Assembly: GCA_963977445.1 (NCBI GenBank)
Contig: CAXBPH010000003.1
Location: forward strand, 6,529 to 70,528
Direction: 5' to 3'
Length of the DNA: 64,000 bases
DNA from: an uncultured bacterium
Lineage (GTDB): Bacteria > Hydrogenedentota > Hydrogenedentia > Hydrogenedentales > JAEUWI01
Made by a program: the position numbers and the translations under genes. Shown here one piece after another: positions 46,234-55,765 of this stretch; position 1 is the stretch's first letter; each line of letters opens with the position of its first letter. The notes beneath the pieces were generated by a model, which ran no database searches, was not told the origin of the DNA, and saw only the letters and a list, made by a program, of their open reading frames with translations.

Positions 46234-47043
46234 TTAGACGGCGTCGGAAACGATTTTCTTTCCGGTAACCGGGCAAACTTTGGCTTCACCTTCGGAAGAA
46301 GCGGCTTTGGCCTTGTCACACTCAGACTTGGCTTTGTCGCAGGTCTTGGCTTCGCCTTCGGAAGAAGCAGCCTTGGCCTTGTCACACTCAGCTTTCGCTT
46401 TGTCACAAGTCTTGGCTTCACCTTCGGAAGAAGCAGCCTTGGCCTTGTCACAAGCGGACTTGGGGCATTCGCCTTCAGAGGAAGCAGCCTTCGCTTTGTC
46501 ACAGGTCTTGGCTTCACCTTCAGAAGAAGCGGCTTTGGCCTTGTCACACTCAGACGTGGCTTTGTCACAGGTCTTGGCTTCGCCTTCGGAAGAAGCAGCC
46601 TTGGCCTTGTCACAGGTCTTGGCTTCACCTTCGGAAGAAGCGGCCTTCGCTTTATCGCACTGCTTCGCTTCACCTTCGGAGGAAGCAGCCTTGGCTACCT
46701 TCGTCTTGCAGCAGCTGGACGCTTCACCTTCAGAGGAAGCCGCCAACGCCTTATCGAAGGTCGCCTGCCGGTCGGCGATCAGCTTGGCTTTCTTTTCGCA
46801 TGGCTGAAAGGCATCTTCATTCGCTGCGGAAACCGTCTGCATGCCGAAGAAGGAGGCAACACTGTTCTTAGCACTCGTGATGGCGCAGGAACCTGATGCT
46901 CCGTTGTTCGCAACAACGCCAGCAGTCGCCACGCCGGATACGACGACCATAGCAGCAACGAAGGATGCCCATTTGCCTTTGTTACGTTTCGGTGCTTGAG
47001 CCGTTTCTTCGGTCACAAGCTCTTCCTGATGTTCTTCGTTCAT
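46234..47043 (-). CDS. Single-pass membrane protein with ~10 tandem 15-aa Cys/Lys/Ala-rich repeats (CDKAKAASSEGEAKT), function unknown
   Basis: Short cytoplasmic N-terminus, TM helix WASFVAAMVVVSGVATAGVVA, then the repeat array with ~17 Cys including C-x6-C and C-x4-C pairs. C-terminus VCPVTGKKIVSDAV. ATG at 47043 has GGAG 9 nt upstream. Shadow ORFs exist in the other frames. Confidence 0.55.
   Translation of the reverse strand: MNEEHQEELVTEETAQAPKRNKGKWASFVAAMVVVSGVATAGVVANNGASGSCAITSAKNSVASFFGMQTVSAANEDAFQPCEKKAKLIADRQATFDKALAASSEGEASSCCKTKVAKAASSEGEAKQCDKAKAASSEGEAKTCDKAKAASSEGEAKTCDKATSECDKAKAASSEGEAKTCDKAKAASSEGECPKSACDKAKAASSEGEAKTCDKAKAECDKAKAASSEGEAKTCDKAKSECDKAKAASSEGEAKVCPVTGKKIVSDAV
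46270..46745. repeat. ~10 tandem copies of a 45-bp coding repeat (with 12-21-bp insert variants)
   Basis: Near-identical units GCTTCACCTTCGGAAGAAGCGGCTTTGGCCTTGTCACA... are visible directly. The repeat is continuous and in frame, so it is not spacer/repeat organised like a CRISPR array. Confidence 0.8.
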
Positions 47044-47562
47044 TGAATATTGCTCCACAAGTGTTTAAATAAGTTACCCATGCAATCTACACGATAAACA
47101 TAGATTCAAAATTGACCCGATTTCATGTCAAAACCTGGAATTATTCGTAGGGTTCAGCATAACAAAAACTCCGCCACTTCGCAATCCTGTCGAAGCGCGC
47201 ATTTCCACGAACCCGAAAGAAATGAAAACAACCTAACCATCTCAATTTAAAGGCGTTACATAAAGTGTGTCTTTAACCCACAATCGCTGGAACGGCTACG
47301 TCGTCAGCTCACCAAGTTTCAATGCAGTGCAATTTGTCCGAAAAATCGCTGAAAACAGGTTGGTTGGCCGAGAACATTCATGAAATAACTGCCCCATAGG
47401 CCATGCCCCCACGAAGCCCCGACTCAACCGGTATTTTGCCGACTTCCGACGATGTTGCCGATGTTTTTGAGGAAGTGGTGGCGGAGTCTTGTGCGGGTGT
47501 CTTGGTGGCTTGGGTCGTTGTCGGTCATCGTCGGCTGCCTTTTAAGATTGCCGAAAAGGGGC

Positions 47563-47766
47563 CTACTCTGCGGGATGCGCAGCCGTGATCGCGACGGGCT
47601 CCGAGGCCTCGCGGCTCTTGCGCATGAGTTCCTGGTCGATCATGCCAAGTTCGGCGGCCAAACCGGCTGCGGCTACGGACAGGCAGGTTTCTTCCACTTC
47701 CGCCGCGTGGCGCATCCATTCGGGAAAAGGAAACGCATCACTTGTGCTATTCATATCCATGGTCAT
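47563..47766 (-). CDS. Small hypothetical protein (67 aa); its start overlaps the stop of the upstream GNAT-like gene by 4 nt
   Basis: ORF only. No motif recognised. The overlap suggests translational coupling. Confidence 0.3.
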   Translation of the reverse strand: MTMDMNSTSDAFPFPEWMRHAAEVEETCLSVAAAGLAAELGMIDQELMRKSREASEPVAITAAHPAE

Positions 47767-48329
47767 AGGTGCCTTTCCAGAATTCTCTCTGCATTGTCGC
47801 GCGAAAGTTCAAAGTACGTCAAGTTTTCGAAATCCACGTCAGGGCCCAACGGTGTCATCCAACACGCCCCTCCGTAGAAGGGTACGGACTGCGGCAAGGC
47901 ATGTAGGCCCACTCGACCTCCAAAGCCTTCGTCCCAGCTTTGCCGGACGGCGCGCTCGAACAGGTGGGGACCAATCAGGCCGTATTTTCGCGTTTGCCCG
48001 ATACCTGGAATGGTCCAGTTCCAAGGGGCGACTTCCAGGAAGTCTATATATACCAGCGGCTTGCCATGATCTTCGCCGAGTTGGGAGAAATGTGTCCCAG
48101 ACTTGGTCAGCATGGCACCCTGCCATTCGTCGTCACAGACCACGGCGAATCCAGATGCAGGAACCAGGCGCAGGTGCTGCGCCTTGGCCCGCCAGTTCCA
48201 GTTGAGGCTCTGGGGTCGCTCGGAATAGGGAAGACCCGCGCGGGCTATTTCGAGAAGGATGCGGGAGCGTTCTGGAGTCCACACCGATTCCAGTGTCAGC
48301 AGGTCTTCAGGCGCGACGAGGAGGGCCAA
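47763..48329 (-). CDS. GNAT-fold acyltransferase-like protein (tentative)
   Basis: 188 aa. VYIDFLEVAPWNW and EGFGGRVGLHAL weakly resemble GNAT motif regions. It sits between the low-GC acpS and the small ORF. Confidence 0.4.
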   Translation of the reverse strand: MALLVAPEDLLTLESVWTPERSRILLEIARAGLPYSERPQSLNWNWRAKAQHLRLVPASGFAVVCDDEWQGAMLTKSGTHFSQLGEDHGKPLVYIDFLEVAPWNWTIPGIGQTRKYGLIGPHLFERAVRQSWDEGFGGRVGLHALPQSVPFYGGACWMTPLGPDVDFENLTYFELSRDNAERILERHL

Positions 48330-48348
48330 GCTGTTCTGCCTTCACGGC

Positions 48349-48732
48349 CTACTCACCCGTTGCGATGGCACTGGCGAAAGCGATTCCGCTCGAATAGCTA
48401 ATACTCACATGCCAATCTAAGATACCGAGCTCATCAGAAAACTTTGCCACGTCATGATTTAGCCTTACATATGGAGCCCCGTTCTTCCCCCGAAGAATTT
48501 CTATTCCATGCCACGTTATTTTTCCAGAAAACCCAGTACCAAGAGCCTTTGCGATGGCCTCCTTTGCGGCGTATCTACCTGCATAGTAACGATAGTGGGC
48601 TGGGGGAGGGTCGGCGGCTTCTCGCTCGTCTATTGAGCAAAAGCAATTGACCCAGCTATTCGTACCTGAGTCAATTTCATTTCTTATACGTTGAATTCTT
48701 TCAATATCGATTCCGTGACCAATGATTCGCAT
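48349..48732 (-). CDS. acpS: Holo-[acyl-carrier-protein] synthase (4-prime-phosphopantetheinyl transferase, AcpS type), low GC and probably island-borne
   Basis: MRIIGHGIDIERIQRI...YAAKEAIAKALGTG...WHVSISYSSGIAFASAIA aligns along its whole length with the AcpS family. The gene is ~40-50% GC in a ~60% GC genome. Confidence 0.85.
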   Translation of the reverse strand: MRIIGHGIDIERIQRIRNEIDSGTNSWVNCFCSIDEREAADPPPAHYRYYAGRYAAKEAIAKALGTGFSGKITWHGIEILRGKNGAPYVRLNHDVAKFSDELGILDWHVSISYSSGIAFASAIATGE

Positions 48733-48740
48733 GCATCCCC

Positions 48741-50624
48741 CTATTTTATTTCTCGAACTACGATATCTCTCTTGTCAAGATCCAGGTCAACAGTTCCGCC
48801 TCCACGAGATTTCAACTCTCTCCAAACTTTGAAGCCCTGCAGGATAGCGCGTTCCCATTCTCCCGTTGTGCATGCTGACACCTCAAGATGAAGGACGGTA
48901 TTCTTTATCATTCGTAACAATTCACTACTGACCGACAATTTACCCTCTAGGAAGTTGTAGTCACGAGCGTAGGCAAAAATCATTGCCGATAGTGCCTCTT
49001 CCGTGACAATCGCCCTTGCACCATCTTCCACTTCGTCAACTTTCGGATCACTCTTTCGCTTCGCTGTGAACATTTTCCTGACGAGTGGAGACCAACCTAG
49101 AACCGCAGCGAAAGACAAATGGATTACATCGTGGAGTCCGTAACCATCGTTCTCGTAAGCGTTGTCAGTCAAGTCATCACCAAACTGCTGACCCTTGTAC
49201 ATCACCCGTATTTTTGGGTTGTTGAATTCGTCATGGTATGTGCTGAAATCGAGTGAAAAACTACGTGGAAATTGTTCATTTTCGGGATATCCTGCATCGA
49301 ACGGAGTTCGCGAAGGTAACGTGCCCCACCGTTCATCACATTTCGCCAAGTTAAGCTCGGCGATCTCCTTCAGATCGAGATTAAACTTCGTGGCGACGTT
49401 TGCCACATACCACAGCAAGTCTCCGAGTTCCTCGCTTAAGCGGTCCTTAAACAATTTATGCGTGTCACCGTCCCGAAGATATTTCTTGTATTCACTCAAC
49501 AATTCACCGGATTCGCTTGCGAGGCCCAACAGAGGAATCGTTAGCGAAGACTCGTCCACACCGGGATTTTGATCTGTCCCGGCAACTTTCTCTTGGTATT
49601 TGCCCATATCCATGGCTCTTGTCTCCAGGTTCACCCCCGTACTCGATCGATTTTCTTCGTTTGAGCTGGTACGGCTGATTAATTCGTTTATGCCCCACTT
49701 GGGTGGGTACCAATAGTCGATTGGTTCTAAAATAGGCTTCAGCTTCTGCTTTATGCGACTTCGCCCTGATTTTCCGACGAATTCTGGATGTACAACTCGC
49801 GCGTACTTGTCTACTTCACAAAACAGGTTTTGGCAATCAATCAATTGAAGCGGCCTTCCCCATAAGTCGGAAAAATCTATGCCCAGTCGATTAAATTCCT
49901 CATCCTGCCTCTCGGTCACCCACCGGATTATTTGTGCAGTATCCTTCTTTCCCGGGTTTAGAAAGCACTTCTGGATTCCATCGAGTGCTCCGGGGCCTGC
50001 GACCACAAAGTCCATTTCAGAGAAGTTAATGATGGTGCTGTAGTTCAAATCGGTAACATACTGATAGGCTAGAAAGTTGCCTATCCCAGGTGATGACCGC
50101 ATTGATTCGAACGCCTCTTCCATGGACTCCGAATCAGCAATTCGTTTCGGTAGCTCCGAAGACATCATGTATTCAAGTAACTTAAGATGGTTCTGGTGTT
50201 TGAATGTTAGCGAAAATTTTCGGACGGAGGGCATTATATAGGCTGCGGAATAGATCCGCTGGCCTCGCGTCATCGCCTGACTTAAGACACGGTCATATGC
50301 CTTGTATGAGTAATCGGCGTATGTGAGATGGCCAAGCTCATTCTCAAGTAGTTTCCATGTATCGATGCGATTGAAAAGTTTGAATAGAATTATGCGAAAA
50401 AACACTTCAGCTGGATGAGTCGGGAGGTCTTCGTTGTATATTACGTTCCTAATGAGATATTGGCTCACTCTGTCAGAGGCTCTGTAGGCGTTCGTGAATT
50501 TGTGGTTTTGAAGCACAGCGTCATCCGTCCACGGAAGAGGGCGCTTACTTATTCGTCGAAAGAAGATTCTCTGTCGCTCGGCGGCGAATTTCCAATACGT
50601 ATCGTATACAGGAGTAGTTTTCAT
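48741..50624 (-). CDS. 627-aa multidomain protein: N-terminal uncharacterised domain (possibly aGPT-pyrophosphorylase-like) plus a central MazG-like NTP pyrophosphohydrolase domain
   Basis: Central ESGELLSEYKK...EELGDLLWYVANVATKFNLDLKEIAELNLAKCDERW matches the MazG EExxE / ELGDxL motifs. The N-terminal 300 aa (MKTTPVYDTYWKFAAERQRIFFRR...PWTDDAVLQNHKFTNAYRASDRVSQYL) reminds me of nucleotide-base hypermodification-associated families, but I cannot verify that here. Confidence 0.6.
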   Translation of the reverse strand: MKTTPVYDTYWKFAAERQRIFFRRISKRPLPWTDDAVLQNHKFTNAYRASDRVSQYLIRNVIYNEDLPTHPAEVFFRIILFKLFNRIDTWKLLENELGHLTYADYSYKAYDRVLSQAMTRGQRIYSAAYIMPSVRKFSLTFKHQNHLKLLEYMMSSELPKRIADSESMEEAFESMRSSPGIGNFLAYQYVTDLNYSTIINFSEMDFVVAGPGALDGIQKCFLNPGKKDTAQIIRWVTERQDEEFNRLGIDFSDLWGRPLQLIDCQNLFCEVDKYARVVHPEFVGKSGRSRIKQKLKPILEPIDYWYPPKWGINELISRTSSNEENRSSTGVNLETRAMDMGKYQEKVAGTDQNPGVDESSLTIPLLGLASESGELLSEYKKYLRDGDTHKLFKDRLSEELGDLLWYVANVATKFNLDLKEIAELNLAKCDERWGTLPSRTPFDAGYPENEQFPRSFSLDFSTYHDEFNNPKIRVMYKGQQFGDDLTDNAYENDGYGLHDVIHLSFAAVLGWSPLVRKMFTAKRKSDPKVDEVEDGARAIVTEEALSAMIFAYARDYNFLEGKLSVSSELLRMIKNTVLHLEVSACTTGEWERAILQGFKVWRELKSRGGGTVDLDLDKRDIVVREIK

Positions 50625-50672
50625 ATTAACCGGCCGAAAGTATACGAGTACAGTGGAGTCATTTTTGTCTTT

Positions 50673-51497
50673 CTAAAAATCGTCATGAATAGGCTCGGAA
50701 ACTGTGCTCGTCACAGATTTGCAAAGTATTTTGTTAGAGCGCGTGATCAAGTCACGTGCATTGCGTACCCCCCAAGGAAATTGTTTTGAATCCTTAATTC
50801 TGGCTGGGCCTTTATCAATTTCGGCATGTGTGGAGACACAGGTGAGCGAACCGACGGTTAGGCCAGCTCGCTCTGCCACAAACGCCTGAAGTTGCCCCAA
50901 ACCGATTAGATTGCCAAGGCACCGAGATATGTACGTGTGGTTACGGTACATTGCTGTAAGCATCAAGCCCTTGTTTGGATGACATTTAAAGCTCAAAAAA
51001 CTGAGGCATTGTCCCCCCCATCGACTACGCCCATCCTCCAAGGGATCGTAAACCGCTAGCTCATATGCCGACTTGAACTTCTGACCACCATTCTCGCGTT
51101 CTTGTAGCTTACCGATCAGCTGTTCTAGTGGATTGTATGTCTTGCCGAGCCTAGTCTGATGCCTGGTCATTCGCTCAAAGTACCTACCCCAGCGCCGGGT
51201 CTTCGTCAGTCTATCGAACGCTTCATGGTATTTCTCGTAGAACACCGGAGCCCCGTGCTGATTGTAGAGTGATTGGGGAAAAATCGTGTTACAGACCGTG
51301 GATATGGGGTAGCAATCGTACTTTCGTAGAAAATCGTCTACCTCTGAAATGATTTCATTGTCAGTTGAATCGAACGATACGGGATTTTCTACATCAACAA
51401 TAACGTTGTATCCCTCATCATTGTGCTTCATGATCTCCATTGCAGCCGCTACCCACGCTCGCGCACAACTCTTCTGTGTCGGGATGGCGATGTACAT
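50673..51497 (-). CDS. Thymidylate-synthase-fold enzyme (ThyA / dCMP-dUMP hydroxymethylase superfamily, divergent)
   Basis: GGQCLSFLSFKCHPNKGLMLTAMYRNHTYISRCLGNLIGLGQLQAFVAERAGLTVGSLTCVSTHAEID aligns with the ThyA core PCHAFFQFYV...[21 protein letters not shown]...VGDFVWTGGDTHLY. QCL sits at the position of the catalytic PCH. Confidence 0.55.
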   Translation of the reverse strand: MYIAIPTQKSCARAWVAAAMEIMKHNDEGYNVIVDVENPVSFDSTDNEIISEVDDFLRKYDCYPISTVCNTIFPQSLYNQHGAPVFYEKYHEAFDRLTKTRRWGRYFERMTRHQTRLGKTYNPLEQLIGKLQERENGGQKFKSAYELAVYDPLEDGRSRWGGQCLSFLSFKCHPNKGLMLTAMYRNHTYISRCLGNLIGLGQLQAFVAERAGLTVGSLTCVSTHAEIDKGPARIKDSKQFPWGVRNARDLITRSNKILCKSVTSTVSEPIHDDF

Positions 51498-51509
51498 AGA
51501 AAGGTCTCC

Positions 51510-52157
51510 CTAATGCGTAATAAATGCGGAAAAGATTCGCGACCCGAGATAACGTTTGCTCAACCAGGCGTAGCCATGAAGGCCCCAGGATTCACCCCAA
51601 CTGTTTCTGATAGCGATATACTTTTCGCTGTTTTTCGTAGCTGTTGCGACGGCAACAACAGCGTGTCGTCGAACCGGGTCGATAGGCTCAGTTGAATCAA
51701 CGATTCCAACGTTGTCCGGGGTATAGAACGCATCTGAGAACGACATCGCGAGGACGACGGGCTTGTCGGTTTGGATGCAGTCCCAAACGGCGTCAAATGT
51801 GGCGGTTAAGGCGCTAGTATGGCATTGGAAAAGTTGCCCTACGTTGTTGGGAGGCTTCCAGTGCGAAATTGGGCTTGGCAATGCCTTGAGGTAGGGCCAG
51901 GCGAGTTCGTTCGGTTGCCCGTCCCCAGTTAATGCAGAGCATACCCCCGGAATGGAAACACCCAAATCTGGAGAGCTTCTCTCCCACTTTATCGCGTAGT
52001 AGTATAGGTACTCACACGACAAGGGTTGCCAATTCCTCTCCAGTGCGGCGGAATGTGCGTCGCTCGTGGCGAACGCCAGGCATGTCGGGCGCGCTCCTTG
52101 ATCGCGAGCGCTGCCAAAATATGGTCGTAGGTCGTGACGGATAATCATCGAACTCAT
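51510..52157 (-). CDS. Papain-like cysteine peptidase (C1A-like, compact, no pro-region)
   Basis: QGARPTCLAFA matches the QG-x-C-G-S-C-W-A-F spacing of the catalytic Cys. HAVVAVA matches the His region. NSWGESWGLHGYAWL matches papain NSWG..WG..GY. Confidence 0.7.
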   Translation of the reverse strand: MSSMIIRHDLRPYFGSARDQGARPTCLAFATSDAHSAALERNWQPLSCEYLYYYAIKWERSSPDLGVSIPGVCSALTGDGQPNELAWPYLKALPSPISHWKPPNNVGQLFQCHTSALTATFDAVWDCIQTDKPVVLAMSFSDAFYTPDNVGIVDSTEPIDPVRRHAVVAVATATKNSEKYIAIRNSWGESWGLHGYAWLSKRYLGSRIFSAFITH

Positions 52158-53167
52158 GGGCGACTCAACATTGCTTGGCGTTGAGCTGGCAGGAGGCCGG
52201 TTTGTAGTGGTCCTGTCAAGTTTACATCAAATTCGAGCGACTGTAGAGATTCATCATCTGAGAGCCATGGTCGCTGTTCACGAAGATTCACGTGACCGAG
52301 TGCCGACTGCTCCGGTTCAGCCACGATCTTACGTTCGACAATACTACCGATTGCATTTTCAGTCGAGCGGGCCTCTCGGATGTCCTCAACTATTTTGAGG
52401 CCGACTTTGGAGAGACTGTCAAACGACCACATGTACCCTGATGAAGCGTGTTCGATCAGCTCGAGAATCACGATGTCGTGCGCGCTTCCTTCAATTAGGA
52501 GCCTTTGATCGCCCATGCCAAGCACCCATATATCCGCATACCATGATTCTGGGGTGTGCTGTTTGGTGAGCTGCTGCTTGATAGATTTTGGTTGGGTTTT
52601 GAGCAGGGAGTCTCGTACTGATTTCGAAATCGCATTGTGCTTGAGGAGCGCATGACAAGTCGCCGCATAGCTTGACCCCATCCGTAAGGCCAATTGGTAG
52701 ACTATTTTCGGAGACGTTAGGTCTGAGCTCGCCCACCCTTGTTGACCCATGTGGTGCGTGATTAGCCATTTCGGTGTAAGCAGTTCGGAGGCAAACGCAT
52801 TTGCCTGCAGTTCTATGAGATCAAGAGCTGCCCCGCTCTCAAACGGAGTTCGGTTTAGCCTGGATTCGTCATCTAGACTAGACGAGTGCCCCATGACCGC
52901 GTGACCCAATTCGTGTGCTGCCGTGAAGCGCTGTACGGAAAGGGGGCGTTGTGTGGTCAACAGAACTCCAGATCCATTTTCTTCCAAATAGCATCCGAGC
53001 AGCCCCTTCATCGGTTGGAACATGACAGGTATGTCGAGAGCTGCGAGAAGTCCAAACACATCGATGCGTCCCACCCCACTCTTTACCTTTTTTTTGACAC
53101 CATGGCTAGCATGTAATCGGTTAGCAGCAAGAGCCGCCTCGAGTATAGCCTTACGAACGTCTGGCAT
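52154..53167 (-). CDS. ImmA/IrrE-family zinc metallopeptidase (COG2856) with a ~190-aa C-terminal domain of unknown function
   Basis: HEXXH in AAHELGHAVMGH, preceded by the typical ImmA helix. Its start overlaps the C1 peptidase gene by 4 nt. Confidence 0.75.
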   Translation of the reverse strand: MPDVRKAILEAALAANRLHASHGVKKKVKSGVGRIDVFGLLAALDIPVMFQPMKGLLGCYLEENGSGVLLTTQRPLSVQRFTAAHELGHAVMGHSSSLDDESRLNRTPFESGAALDLIELQANAFASELLTPKWLITHHMGQQGWASSDLTSPKIVYQLALRMGSSYAATCHALLKHNAISKSVRDSLLKTQPKSIKQQLTKQHTPESWYADIWVLGMGDQRLLIEGSAHDIVILELIEHASSGYMWSFDSLSKVGLKIVEDIREARSTENAIGSIVERKIVAEPEQSALGHVNLREQRPWLSDDESLQSLEFDVNLTGPLQTGLLPAQRQAMLSRP

Positions 53168-53170
53168 AGG

Positions 53171-53551
53171 TCAGCCCCCTTTTTGCGCTTTCCTCGATTT
53201 CAAGAATTCTGCGAATCTGGCGAGTTCGCTGCGATCTTCCGGGGCCAATTCAGATACCTGCCGTGCCAGATGAGCGACTTCCTTGTCAACTGGATGCGTG
53301 TCAGCGGTTTCACCGGTAAAAAAGTTCAGAGACCTCCCGTAGAGTTCGGCTAATTTCTTGAGTTCAAACACTTCAACTTTCCTCAGCCCTGCTTCCATCA
53401 AAGATAGCGCGGAACGAGAAGTACCTACTTTCGTGGCTATTTCGTTCTGGGAGAATCCAACATACTCTCGGGCTTCACGTAGCCGGTCACCAAGTACCTT
53501 TCTATCGCTATCACCTTCAACTTTTTTATTGTTGGGAGCTCTACTACTCAT
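53171..53551 (-). CDS. XRE-family (Cro/C1-type) helix-turn-helix transcriptional regulator
   Basis: LGDRLREAREYVGFSQNEIATKVGTSRSALSLMEAG is the HTH_3 motif. The ATG at 53551 overlaps the stop of the upstream ACP-like gene in an ATGA arrangement. Confidence 0.8.
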   Translation of the reverse strand: MSSRAPNNKKVEGDSDRKVLGDRLREAREYVGFSQNEIATKVGTSRSALSLMEAGLRKVEVFELKKLAELYGRSLNFFTGETADTHPVDKEVAHLARQVSELAPEDRSELARFAEFLKSRKAQKGG

Positions 53552-53868
53552 TTGCTTCCCTTTCTTTTTTCCTCTTCTTGGCACAATTTATCTATACGCA
53601 GCATCATATCGTCAATTGCTTCATCAACACTTTGATAGCCGCCTTTTCGTATAGTCTTGTCTGGAGGTAGTCGAAAACCAACGATTGGCTCGATGGCTAA
53701 CAAAGTGCTTACGACGGCAAAGGAGTCCAAAAGTGGCTCCCAAACCTTGCGCAACAGAGCCCCCTCATCCACAATCTCGTCAAGCTTGTCAGTCAAAACT
53801 GCCCGAATTTCGCAAGAAGTCAAATGAACATCTTCGTCGATTTGAAACGCTGTGGATGTGTTTGCCAT
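53548..53868 (-). CDS. Acyl-carrier-protein-like (phosphopantetheine-binding) small protein
   Basis: LLDSFAVVSTLLAIEPIVGFRLPPDKTI...SVDEAIDDMMLRI parallels ACP helix II/III (DSLDTVELVMALEE...FGIEIPDE...TVGDLVDYI), with Ser in DSF at the 4-prime-PP attachment position. Confidence 0.55.
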   Translation of the reverse strand: MANTSTAFQIDEDVHLTSCEIRAVLTDKLDEIVDEGALLRKVWEPLLDSFAVVSTLLAIEPIVGFRLPPDKTIRKGGYQSVDEAIDDMMLRIDKLCQEEEKRKGSK

Positions 53869-53935
53869 ACCGAATCTCCTGTGCTACTTGGTTAGGATAC
53901 CAAAATTCAGTTGGAAAATCAAACACAAAATATCA

Positions 53936-53958
53936 ATATGTTAGATTTTCTAACATAT
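53936..53958. promoter_or_regulatory. Perfect palindrome ATATGTTAGA-TTT-TCTAACATAT upstream of the island operon; candidate XRE-repressor operator
   Basis: 10-bp arms seen directly, ~70 nt upstream of the ACP-like gene start. A second long dyad (TATAGCCCAGGG...CCCTGGGCTATA) lies at 53961-54024. Confidence 0.45.
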
Positions 53959-54059
53959 GGTATAGCCCAGGGTTTTGCTTGTTCGCGCTTGGGGCGTGAA
54001 CTTGCTGCGCCCTGGGCTATAGTGTGTCACCCCGTTGGGGCTATTCAGATCGCCCTGTA

Positions 54060-54294
54060 CGGATTCGCCGAAGAATGACACTTCGCCCGAAGTGGGCGCC
54101 AGCAACCCCATGAGCACCTTGATGGTCGTGCTCTTACCCGCGCCATTGGGCCCGAGAAGGCCGAAGGCGGCCCCACGCTTTATTTGGAGATTGAGGCCGT
54201 GGACACCATCTCCGTGTTCGTAGGTTTTTACGAGTTCTGAGATTTCGACCACCGACTCGGTCTTCACCGGGGCCTGTTTATCCATAACCTGCAC
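54060..54294 (-). pseudogene. N-terminal fragment of an ABC transporter ATP-binding protein (Walker A GPNGAGKST) with nonsense readthrough after ~78 aa
   Basis: ORF 53950..54294. Homology is recognisable only to ...SGEVSFFGESV; the remaining 35 aa are unrelated junk before the stop. The break coincides with the island boundary. Confidence 0.5.
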
Positions 54295-54436
54295 GAAAAC
54301 AACTCCCCTTGTTCTTCGCTGCAGAACCTGCGTGCAGCGGGAAAACTGCCAACGAAATAGCCCGATACGCTATAGTACAAGACATTAATCTATCTGACAA
54401 TCCCCAAAGATTAACCGGAAAGCCCAATCAAAATTC

Positions 54437-55765
54437 ATGGCCGAAGATCTATTTGAAAATGCCGCCGCTGAGCGGATGCGGAAGGAAGCCCCGCTGGCCC
54501 GCCGTATCGCCCCCCGCACCCTCGATGACTTTGTGGGGCAGGAGCATATCCTCGGGCATGGCAAACTCTTGCGTCGCGCCATCGAAGCCGATCGCATCAC
54601 CTCCCTCCTCCTTTATGGTCCCCCGGGCACGGGCAAGACCGCGCTGGCGCGTATTATCGCCATGCGGACCAAATCGGCCTTTGAACCCTTAAATGCGGTG
54701 ACGTCGGGCGTGAAAGAGCTGCGGGAACTCCTGGCCCAGGCCAAGCAACGGCGCATCCACCAACAGAAGCGCACCATCGTTTTCGTGGACGAAATTCACC
54801 GATTCAATAAGGCCCAGCAGGACGCCCTCCTCCCCGATGTGGAGAATGGCAACATCACCATGATCGGTGCCACCACGGAGAACCCCTTCTTCTCCGTCGT
54901 CGCGCCTCTCCTCTCCCGTTCCCAGATTTTTGAATTCAAACGTCACACGGAAGAAGCCCTCGTCGGCTTACTGCGCCGCGCCCTCACACATCCCGAGCTG
55001 GGGATGGACCCCGAGACCATCACGGTAGACGACGACGCCTTCGCTCATATCGCGCGCTATGCCGAAGGGGATGTGCGCCGTTCCCTCAATGCCTTGGAAG
55101 TGGCCCTGCTTACCACGCCGGTGGTCGATGAGAAGATTCACATCACCGTGGAAGAAGCCCGGGAATCCATCCAGCGCAAACTCCTCCACTACGATGGCAC
55201 GGGCGATGGCCACTATGACGCGGCCTCGGCTTTTATCAAATCCATGCGGGGGAGCAATCCCGATTCGGCCCTCTATTGGATGGCCCGCATGCTGGAAGCC
55301 GGTGAAACGCCGCGCTTTGTGGCGCGACGCATCTGCATCGCCGCGTCGGAAGATGTGGGCAATGCCGACCCCATGGCGCTGGTGCTGGCGAACGCCGCCT
55401 TCCAGACCTGTGAGTTCATCGGCATGCCCGAAGCGCGCATCATGCTCGCCCAGGCCGTGACCTACATCGCCGCCGCCCCCAAGAGCAATGCGTCCTACGC
55501 GGCCATCGACGCCGCCATCGCGGCCGTGCGGGAAGAAAAAACCACCGAAATTCCCAAACACCTCCAGGATGCCCACTACAAGGGGGCCAAACGACTGGGT
55601 CACGGGGCCAACTATCAGTATGCCCACGATTTTGAAGACAACTACGTCACCCAGGACTACGGCATCCCCCGGGGCACCTTCTATCAGCCCACGAAAAATG
55701 GCAAGGAAGCCGAAATAAAGGCCTGGATGGATGAACTCGACGCCCGGGACCGGGGAGAGAACTAG
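54437..55765 (+). CDS. rarA: Replication-associated recombination protein A (AAA+ ATPase RarA/MgsA)
   Basis: [19 protein letters not shown] Walker [13 protein letters not shown] Walker B/sensor, and a C-terminal MgsA helical domain. Confidence 0.9.

Follow-up and report, generated by a model that had tools for sequence, protein, structure and literature searches.

An M78 regulator fused to a chagasin-family domain and its putative papain-like target in a mobile bacterial cassette

We analysed a 64,000-nt stretch of DNA from an uncultured bacterium of the Hydrogenedentota (contig CAXBPH010000003.1 of assembly GCA_963977445.1, positions 6,529 to 70,528; hereafter the window). At about 48.3–54.0 kb of the window, the minus strand carries a gene cluster with a G+C content of 0.44–0.53, compared with 0.57–0.66 in its flanks. 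In the order of transcription, it encodes a 106-aa acyl carrier protein (ACP)-like protein, an XRE-family helix-turn-helix (HTH) protein, a 337-aa protein joining an M78 peptidase to a chagasin domain, a 215-aa papain-family (C1) peptidase, a 274-aa thymidylate synthase (TS)-like protein, a 627-aa fusion of HMUDK_hel, MazG and MazG_C, a holo-ACP synthase (AcpS) and a 188-aa open reading frame (ORF). The core of the cluster consists of the following features, each given with the evidence for its assignment.

53548..53868, minus strand: ACP-like small protein (106 aa, LDS motif), encoded by the operon's first gene (family profile against PDB)
53171..53551, minus strand: XRE-family HTH repressor, 126 aa from the ATG at 53551, the longest ORF starting from a GTG at 53584 (Pfam, PADLOC and homologue lengths)
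52154..53167, minus strand: M78/ImmA-type zinc peptidase with a helical linker and a C-terminal chagasin/I42 domain, 337 aa (Pfam, PADLOC, PDB profile, AlphaFold2 and Foldseek)
52208..52555, minus strand: chagasin (I42) domain of the M78 protein, residues ~205–320 (Pfam, alignment, PDB profile and Foldseek)
51510..52157, minus strand: papain-family C1 cysteine peptidase, 215 aa (family alignment and profile)
50673..51497, minus strand: TS-like protein, 274 aa, fifth core member (TIGR03283 match below its cut-off)

The stop codon of the ACP-like gene overlaps the HTH start codon at 53551 (AAATGAGT), the HTH and M78 genes are joined by TGAcctATG, and the M78 stop codon overlaps the C1 start codon in an ATGA (CCCATGAGT). 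The fourth core junction, again in the order of transcription, consists of a TAG, nine nucleotides and an ATG. We collected 85 loci encoding relatives of the M78 protein. The same junctions as in the window were seen in 67 distinct related loci, nearly always as an overlap or a gap of 2–6 nt, and most alphaproteobacterial loci show a 29-nt overlap between the C1 gene and the TS-like gene. The original prediction, made from the letters of the window, had the HTH gene and the gene for the HEXXH peptidase translationally coupled within the operon, and the TGAcctATG junction together with its recurrence among these loci bears this out.

The peptidase domain of the 337-aa protein possesses the HELGH motif at residues 85–89 (52915–52901) and a third zinc ligand, E119. 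It matches Peptidase_M78 (9.2e-11) and the PADLOC model capP (4.7e-16), and the N-terminal ~200 residues resemble IrrE/PprI and CapP in both sequence profile and fold, with a PDB profile match to IrrE at 1.3e-5. Residues H85, E86, H89 and E119 are invariant in 37 homologues (family alignment A1). The AlphaFold2 model of the whole protein is a confident two-domain structure, with a mean predicted local distance difference test score (pLDDT) of 86.9 and a predicted template modelling score (pTM) of 0.86. An XRE repressor gene and an HExxH M78 gene lie side by side in 85 of the 85 loci. The window had been proposed to encode a CapH/CapP-like regulatory pair; Pfam, PADLOC and fold comparisons place it among the XRE/M78 pairs of the ImmR/ImmA, DdrO/IrrE and CapH/CapP type, but the peptidase itself is not a CapP/IrrE-type protein. 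Instead of the three-domain architecture of CapP, namely peptidase, HTH-like linker and GAF domain, it ends in a chagasin/I42 β-sandwich and gives no match to GAF, so that a chagasin domain, overlooked in that proposal, occupies the place of the GAF sensor. Within the peptidase domain, the loop of residues 90–120 (52808–52900) is modelled at a pLDDT of 55–69; it contains the invariant residues H94, S97, D99 and R106 and no cysteine. The corresponding region of CapP holds an autoinhibitory cysteine-switch loop, and residues 90–120 may form a different autoinhibitory loop.

The C-terminal domain of the M78 protein has a chagasin-family (MEROPS I42) fold and not a GAF fold. Its match to Pfam Inhibitor_I42 (5.8e-5) falls under the threshold in the window protein and exceeds the gathering threshold in relatives. 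Searching the family profile against PDB yielded Entamoeba EhICP2 at 2.7e-9 across the whole domain. Foldseek likewise found EhICP2 (3m86) at an E-value of 2.8e-8 with a template modelling (TM) score of 0.82, and chagasin (2nnr, 2h7w, 2oul and 2nqd) with TM scores of 0.72–0.80; the overall range to EhICP2 and chagasin was 0.72–0.83, including chagasin entries in complex with cathepsin L and falcipain-2. All three protease-binding loops of the chagasins (canonically NPTTG-F/Y-x-W, GxGG and RPW) are present, the first as a variant. In the family they are invariant as E-H-x-x-S-G-Y-x-W in L2, I-G-G in L4 and R-P-W in L6 (alignment A1), and in the window they read H240-ASSGYMW, IG(S/G) at 273–275 and R299-P-W, respectively. 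Loop L2 aligns in register with the NPTTGFAW of chagasin, as exemplified by LPSNPTTGFAWYF versus LIEHASSGYMWSF. Given this fold, the invariant motifs and the obligate synteny described below, the domain is predicted to inhibit the neighbouring C1 peptidase. A literature search for work linking chagasin to ImmA/M78, to defence or to toxin–antitoxin systems found nothing relevant, nor any description of such a fusion; a chagasin inhibitor fused to an M78 regulator and apparently aimed at the product of the next gene is an undescribed feature.

To our knowledge, the sensing of a signal by M78/XRE pairs is known only for the GAF-containing proteins IrrE and CapP. CapP is switched on by single-stranded DNA (ssDNA) bound in the groove between its peptidase and GAF domains (10.1101/2022.04.27.489752; 10.64898/2026.05.16.725639). 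In IrrE the GAF-like domain binds ssDNA, and it is this GAF-dependent route that reads DNA damage in both proteins, whereas the GAF-less ImmA and Rir are not stimulated by ssDNA. As the window protein is missing the GAF domain, GAF-dependent ssDNA sensing cannot be assumed here, and the activating signal is probably not sensed in the manner of CapP and IrrE. Activation by ssDNA in an interdomain groove appears unlikely, because the GAF half of that groove is gone and the GAF-less ImmA and Rir go unstimulated.

The adjacent C1 protein displays the papain order of catalytic residues, Q20, C26, H165 and N185 (in N185-S-W), all of which are invariant in 27 sequences. Its profile aligns to the mature domains, and only to these, of Blo t 1, ficin and cathepsins H, K and L, with E-values down to 1.1e-18; the protein has neither a signal peptide nor a propeptide. 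Judged from these residues, the peptidase should be catalytically intact. In 85 of 85 loci the gene directly after M78-I42 is C1, joined to it by an ATGA or TGA-ATG junction. The order HTH, M78-chagasin, C1 holds in the same 85 loci; a TS-like gene comes next in 81, and an ACP-like gene was detected in 77. A papain-like peptidase downstream of the pair had already been pointed out. The location is right, but the gene is more than a downstream neighbour, being the partner of the regulator in all 85 loci and the predicted target of its inhibitor domain.

Searching the chagasin domain alone against 1.84 billion representative proteins returned 188 clusters, mostly M78-chagasin fusions of ~335 aa. 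About ten clusters are HTH-M78-chagasin triple fusions of 450–485 aa, one of which is immediately followed by an intact C1 gene and by no further cassette genes. At one further locus a stand-alone I42 gene precedes a C1 gene. Since such fusions and minimal forms exist, HTH, M78, chagasin and C1 may be argued to form one functional unit. At two other triple-fusion loci the regulator is intact and C1 has decayed, to a 120-aa N-terminal remnant (L088 6404–6766) or to a 34-aa stub (L090 6458–6562); these loci adjoin Cas1/2/4 or a Bil-like ubiquitin system. Decay of C1 beside an intact regulator would be expected of a costly protease and a harmless inhibitor.

The HTH gene, present in 85 of 85 loci, was at first read from the GTG at 53584 (ORF 53584–53171). 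As the homologues are 121–126 aa long, the true start is almost certainly the ATG at 53551, and the earlier choice does not hold. Pfam gives matches to HTH_31 and HTH_3 for this protein, and among the PADLOC models capH fits it best (3.5e-15, over the full length). In the structural model a confident HTH domain (residues 13–79) is followed by a disordered linker (83–91) and two C-terminal helices. The first of these helices contains the invariant residues His94-Leu95-Ala96-Arg97. For comparison, the cleavage site of CapH, Phe82|Arg83, lies within the first helix of the C-terminal domain (10.1101/2022.04.27.489752; 10.64898/2026.05.16.725639), and DdrO is cut at Leu106|Arg107, also in the C-terminal domain. 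The fold of the HTH domain is generic, matching C.AhdI, SinR, ImmR, DdrO and the N-terminal domain of CapH. Membership of the CapH group in particular could not be shown by fold, as the HTH domain gives a general XRE fold and the C-terminal domain gives no match.

Upstream of the first gene, an AGGAG Shine–Dalgarno sequence at 53880–53876 is preceded by two putative operators and a promoter.

53936..53958, no strand: operator O1, a perfect 10+3+10 palindrome (exact sequence and conservation)
53909..53925, no strand: operator O2, an imperfect copy with one mismatch, centred 30 bp promoter-proximal of O1 and overlapping a −35-like hexamer (motif match)
53894..53922, minus strand: inferred promoter, with a −35-like TTGATT (53922–53917), a 17-nt spacer and a −10-like TATCCT (53899–53894) (positional conservation)

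O1 reads ATATGTTAGA-TTT-TCTAACATAT exactly and ends 67 nt before the ATG at 53868. Its core, TGTTAGA-TTT-TCTAACA at 53939–53955, has no mismatch to the motif TGTYNGAWWWTCNRACA, and related loci share a 17-bp palindrome, TGTYNGA-WWW-TCNRACA, upstream of their first gene. With one mismatch allowed, this core motif has two matches in the window, O1 and O2, against 0.04 expected. Of its 73 matches in 1.1 Mb of related loci, 72 lie 700–800 nt upstream of the M78 start, and it stands at the matching upstream position in 69 of the 80 related loci with enough upstream DNA. The O1 palindrome by itself is only mildly unusual: shuffled sequences contain about 0.8 perfect inverted repeats whose arms reach 10 nt or more, and the window contains three distinct ones. 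The 17-bp core motif, by contrast, is far beyond chance. Furthermore, every planctomycete-type locus with an O1 has a second site 30–31 bp downstream of it. In the window this second site contains the −35-like TTGATT, and 17 nt further on the −10 element reads TATCCT; at the conserved position homologous loci read TATAAT, TATCAT or TAGGAT. The palindrome of the alphaproteobacterial loci occupies precisely the space between the two elements of a TTGCAT...TATAT promoter. Thus the predicted sites either overlap the −35 element or fill the −35/−10 spacer, and so lie in the promoter of the operon, as does the repressor site of a CapH-controlled operon. The original prediction of a perfect palindrome some 70 nt upstream of the ACP-like gene, acting as an operator, proves correct in its sequence and position, and the palindrome behaves as a conserved operator overlapping a promoter. 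The geometry of O1 and O2 looks like that of a classic repressor operator, and the protein most likely to bind there is the HTH protein.

The ACP-like protein alone has no Pfam match, and its family profile (A2) finds only acyl carrier proteins in PDB (best E-value 2.2e-5, with the serine aligned), in agreement with the ACP-like first gene proposed earlier. Ser49 aligns to the serine of phosphopantetheine attachment; D48 is invariant and S49 is found in 27 of 28 sequences, while locus L004 has a Trp in place of this serine. The TS-like protein, found in 81 of 85 loci, matches TIGR03283 at 1.7e-10, below the cut-off of that model, and Cys164 is invariant in its alignment (A4). As a search of its profile against PDB gave no match, its likeness to TS rests on this sub-threshold NCBIfam match. 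Downstream of the core lie three further genes.

48741..50624, minus strand: HMUDK_hel (aGPT-Pplase-like) + MazG + MazG_C fusion, 627 aa, accessory module of the planctomycete-type cassette (Pfam 2.5e-114 and 8.3e-70)
48349..48732, minus strand: holo-ACP synthase (AcpS), cassette-borne (Pfam ACPS and NCBIfam)
47763..48329, minus strand: 188-aa ORF after AcpS (ORF list)

The HMUDK_hel-MazG-MazG_C gene also follows the core in L001, L002, L005 and others, and AcpS occupies the equivalent place in 13 related loci. A phosphopantetheinyl transferase (PPTase) has been recruited twice, as AcpS in planctomycete-type loci and as an Sfp-type enzyme on a Haloarcula plasmid (L087 4577–5224). All the accessory genes encode enzymes of pyrimidine nucleotides, namely the TS-like protein, the HMUDK_hel-MazG-MazG_C fusion, a dCTP deaminase (DCD)-like protein, a uracil-DNA glycosylase (UDG)-like protein and tmk (L003 12868–13722; L036 9407–11286; L087 2224–3858). 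The set suggests the making or destroying of a modified dU/dT nucleotide. The aGPT-Pplase, MazG, MazG-C and UDG domains also occur in predicted, unvalidated defence systems listed by DefensePredictor (PMC13092281), and the accessory genes of the cassette carry exactly those domains. A search of that paper for M78, ImmA and papain returned nothing, its sole 'peptidase' being an M15 family domain; chagasin/I42 was not among the terms searched for.

The cassette is mobile; its hosts span many bacterial phyla, and at least one archaeal plasmid carries it. A genome scan with one genome per species gave at least 600 candidate stretches, at least 477 of which encode a confirmed relative, so that roughly 477 species or more would have the cassette in their genomes. 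The 80 loci kept come from Planctomycetota, Alphaproteobacteria (Sphingomonadaceae, Brevundimonas, Methylobacterium, Bradyrhizobium, Brucella pecoris and others), Gemmatimonadota and Armatimonadota. In the Alphaproteobacteria, the cassette lies between the relaxase and coupling-protein genes of integrative and conjugative elements (ICEs) or plasmids, together with a convergent UDG-like gene and a MazG-MazG_C gene. Among plasmid records, 26 have a match, 16 of them conjugative. The Haloarcula plasmid bears the same five-gene core with the Sfp-type PPTase, a 'nucleotide kinase domain' protein and tmk, and adjoins a restriction enzyme. The neighbours of the loci, in defence islands or on plasmids, include AbiE, HipA, restriction–modification (RM), Cas and Bil-like genes. 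We also considered a prophage immunity module and rejected it, because a phage collection contained no full-length homologue.

A dozen Sphingomonadales loci (L036–L044, L048, L049 and L051, from Sphingopyxis, Sphingomonas, Erythrobacter and Sphingosinicella) have identical tblastn coordinates and percent identities, and most of them were removed on deduplication of the upstream DNA or of the M78 proteins. In L036, the one locus examined for its context, the cassette is situated between the coupling-protein gene of a type IV secretion system and a relaxase gene. Identical matches across several genera, together with this conjugative context, point to recent horizontal spread on one conjugative element in the Sphingomonadales.

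Taken together, these features enable us to propose a putative two-layer switch, in which the repressor autoregulates a mobile operon, the M78 peptidase cleaves the repressor and the chagasin domain clamps C1; we give this model a probability of roughly 0.55. In a first step, which the comparative data support, dimers (or a tetramer) of the XRE protein would bind O1 and O2, 30 bp apart. As O2 covers the −35 element, expression of the operon, including the repressor gene itself, would be kept low. On a signal, the M78 peptidase, through its HELGH motif and E119, would, by analogy with ImmA, IrrE and CapP, cleave or otherwise inactivate the repressor near Ala96-Arg97 in the first helix of the putative C-terminal oligomerisation domain, and derepress the operon. 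Meanwhile, the chagasin domain of the same protein would insert its three loops into the active-site cleft of C1. Made from the overlapping next gene, C1 would emerge pre-inhibited at a stoichiometry of about 1:1. The cassette would in this way be controlled both transcriptionally and post-translationally, with C1 as a latent effector or toxin and with the HTH and M78-chagasin proteins as its antitoxin-like keeper. By analogy with the known pairs, cleavage of the XRE repressor by M78 is probable.

Several observations weigh against this model. Some M78 relatives, such as Rir, bind their repressor instead of cleaving it, and the cleavage step may be wrong. The C-terminal domain of the HTH protein, where the cut would fall, is modelled at a pLDDT of only 55–77 and has no structural match. 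In the inhibitor domain, L2 begins with H-A-S-S-G instead of the canonical NPTTG, and L4 of the window protein is IGS instead of IGG. The regulator survives without its presumed target in the two triple-fusion loci with a decayed C1. The promoter hexamers of the window are weak and were missed by a scan for the σ70 consensus (8/12 against a threshold of 9/12), and it is for this reason that the promoter is placed by positional conservation only. Finally, the operator motif was not found upstream of the distant HTH-M78-I42 fusions or of the Haloarcula locus, which confines its conservation to the bacterial five-gene family.

A further possibility, which we put forward tentatively and with clearly less confidence, is a two-protease relay, in which one trigger both cleaves the repressor and releases C1, or lets newly made C1 escape in excess over its inhibitor. 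The freed C1 would then cleave proteins of the host or the cassette, and might thereby switch on the nucleotide-modifying TS-like/MazG arm, for instance, or cause cell death. If true, such a relay would represent a new class of protease-inhibitor toxin–antitoxin or abortive-infection switch, spread by conjugative elements to bacterial phyla and haloarchaea.

Alternatively, the cassette might work as a toxin–antitoxin-like module in which the repressor is never cleaved: HTH, M78-chagasin and C1 would form a repressing complex, and loss or titration of a labile keeper would free the C1 toxin, with M78 serving as a binding partner, like Rir, or degrading a foreign protein that comes from a phage or plasmid. 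The architecture would suit a type II toxin–antitoxin system, with a predicted autoregulated operon, an inhibitor domain, the minimal two-gene form of HTH-M78-I42 fusion plus C1, and degraded remnants of C1. There are also matches to 'repressor/antitoxin' HTH-M78 families such as spr1629 and RmrA, Rir inhibits its repressor although cleavage could not be demonstrated, and the surroundings of the loci, with AbiE, HipA, RM, Cas and Bil-like genes, suit such a role. However, the invariant HExxH and E119 argue for real peptidase activity, and an invariant Ala-Arg stands structurally where CapH is cut, with DdrO likewise cut before an Arg; on balance we consider this alternative rather unlikely.

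It is improbable, in our view, that the window encodes a plain regulator of the CapH/CapP type, in which an ssDNA-sensing peptidase cleaves the repressor and the chagasin domain is merely a structural substitute for GAF. The best PADLOC matches are certainly capH and capP, the N-terminal peptidase and helical linker resemble those of CapP and IrrE, and many different defence operons are known to have a CapH/CapP pair next to them. Yet the known ssDNA route needs a GAF-like domain, the GAF-less ImmA and Rir are not stimulated by ssDNA, and the invariance of the three chagasin loops across the family is hard to explain for a mere scaffold. Nor would a plain regulator account for C1 being the next gene in each of the 85 loci, and also after a triple fusion and after a stand-alone I42 gene.

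Alternatively again, the C1-fold protein could be a thioesterase, acyltransferase, amidase or other enzyme of a pathway, acting on the ACP-like protein in its phosphopantetheinylated form or on a nucleotide-linked intermediate, and the chagasin domain would do no more than tether or time it within a pathway of nucleotide modification. The ACP-like gene at the head of the operon, the twofold independent recruitment of a PPTase, the 29-nt overlap of the C1 and TS-like genes in most alphaproteobacterial loci and the pyrimidine-nucleotide nature of all the accessory genes (TS-like, MazG, aGPT-Pplase-like, DCD and UDG) fit this idea. Against it, L004 keeps HTH, M78-I42, C1 and the ACP-like gene and has neither TS-like gene nor PPTase, its ACP being the one that has lost the serine to Trp; L091 likewise keeps HTH, M78-I42 and C1 and is devoid of the TS-like, PPTase and ACP-like genes; and the C1 profile matches true papain/cathepsin endopeptidases over the whole mature domain. 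We regard a pathway enzyme as quite improbable.

That the palindrome is no operator at all, but a chance inverted repeat, the terminator of an upstream ABC-ATPase fragment or the scar of an insertion, could draw on the mild improbability of a perfect 10-nt-arm repeat and on the long imperfect hairpin and truncated ABC gene adjoining it, but we rejected the terminator and scar readings, and the idea is effectively refuted by conservation of the motif, which keeps a fixed distance to the operon start across phyla and overlaps promoter elements, the palindrome being moreover AT-rich, without a following T-run and uncalled in a terminator scan.

M78/XRE pairs are the commonest 'alarm switches' placed before prophages, ICEs and defence operons. 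The present pair shares with CapH/CapP an XRE repressor with a C-terminal, here putative, oligomerisation domain, an HExxH M78 protein with a helical linker and a palindromic site in the promoter (10.1101/2022.04.27.489752; 10.64898/2026.05.16.725639), as well as a Foldseek match to CapP (7t5t) and an invariant Arg in the first C-terminal helix, the region in which CapH is cut. It differs in having chagasin/I42 for GAF, in missing the cysteine of the switch from the loop after HExxH, and in being co-directional inside its operon with a papain-like peptidase and nucleotide-modifying enzymes as partners, not CBASS. DdrO and IrrE (PprI) of Deinococcus are likewise a repressor and an M78 protein; among solved structures, the N-terminal part is best matched by the IrrE entries 8slm and 3dte, and DdrO is cut before an Arg. 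Unlike the mobile cassette, which has neither, IrrE possesses an ssDNA-binding GAF-like domain and governs a chromosomal DNA-repair regulon. ImmR and ImmA of ICEBs1 are a repressor and an anti-repressor protease on a mobile element, relatives of the window cassette are likewise carried by ICEs and conjugative plasmids, and the DNA-binding domain of ImmR (7t8i) is among the closest matches; however, ImmA is a single-domain protein of 169 residues, and the pair controls excision and transfer instead of a protease effector.

With the I42 inhibitors, such as chagasin of T. cruzi, EhICP2 and ICP of P. aeruginosa, the chagasin domain of the window shares the fold (TM 0.72–0.83) and three loops in the same register; the enzyme encoded next to it is of the papain family, which these inhibitors target. 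The inhibitors matched are small and stand-alone, with chains of ~100–130 residues, whereas the domain in the window is part of a fusion with a transcription-linked metallopeptidase, and some relatives have an HTH domain joined on as well. A parallel is offered by the staphostatin–staphopain operons of Staphylococcus, in which a cytoplasmic inhibitor encoded in the operon is specific for the co-transcribed papain-like protease. Staphostatins have a fold other than that of chagasin and are not fused to a regulator, and staphopain is secreted as a zymogen.

Around the operon, an ORF at 53950–54294 on the minus strand is a fragment of an ABC-transporter ATPase that comprises the Walker A half only, its residues 32–95 matching ABC_tran; the remainder is missing, as no signature or Walker B motif occurs in 40–54.4 kb. 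Between this fragment and O1 lies an imperfect long hairpin (53961–54021, with 28-nt arms that are 75% complementary), which could be an insertion scar or an insulator. At the other end, the 188-aa ORF (47763–48329), which may or may not be part of the operon, has a G+C content above that of the cassette and no family match in four libraries; its position is taken in related loci by a dCTP-deaminase-like gene or by a 363-aa protein without assignment. A terminator-like hairpin at 47417–47391 is located 3′ of this ORF. Further on, a 274-aa ORF (46234–47058, minus strand) encodes an N-terminal hydrophobic segment followed by about nine tandem repeats of a 15- or 22-residue unit (…SSEGEAKTCDKAKAA…); the repeats have DNA periods of 66 and 45 nt, the opposite strand is also open through them, and there is no Pfam match. 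Searches for flanking direct repeats or att sites around the island found none, and Rfam gave no RNA family within 47000–54500.

In summary, this analysis describes a mobile cassette in which an XRE/M78 regulatory pair is linked to a papain-family peptidase by constant gene order and, putatively, through a chagasin-family domain. The GAF sensor of the known pairs appears to have been swapped for a eukaryote-style inhibitor of cysteine proteases, by which a transcriptional switch would be coupled, physically and directly, to a latent protease effector. If true, this would reveal a new logic for silencing a cytoplasmic papain-like protease and would assign a function to bacterial chagasin homologues. 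It would also provide a compact set of operator, repressor and protease for a synthetic-biology switch, and a handle on a widespread, uncharacterised mobile cassette that unites an ACP, a PPTase and pyrimidine-modifying enzymes.

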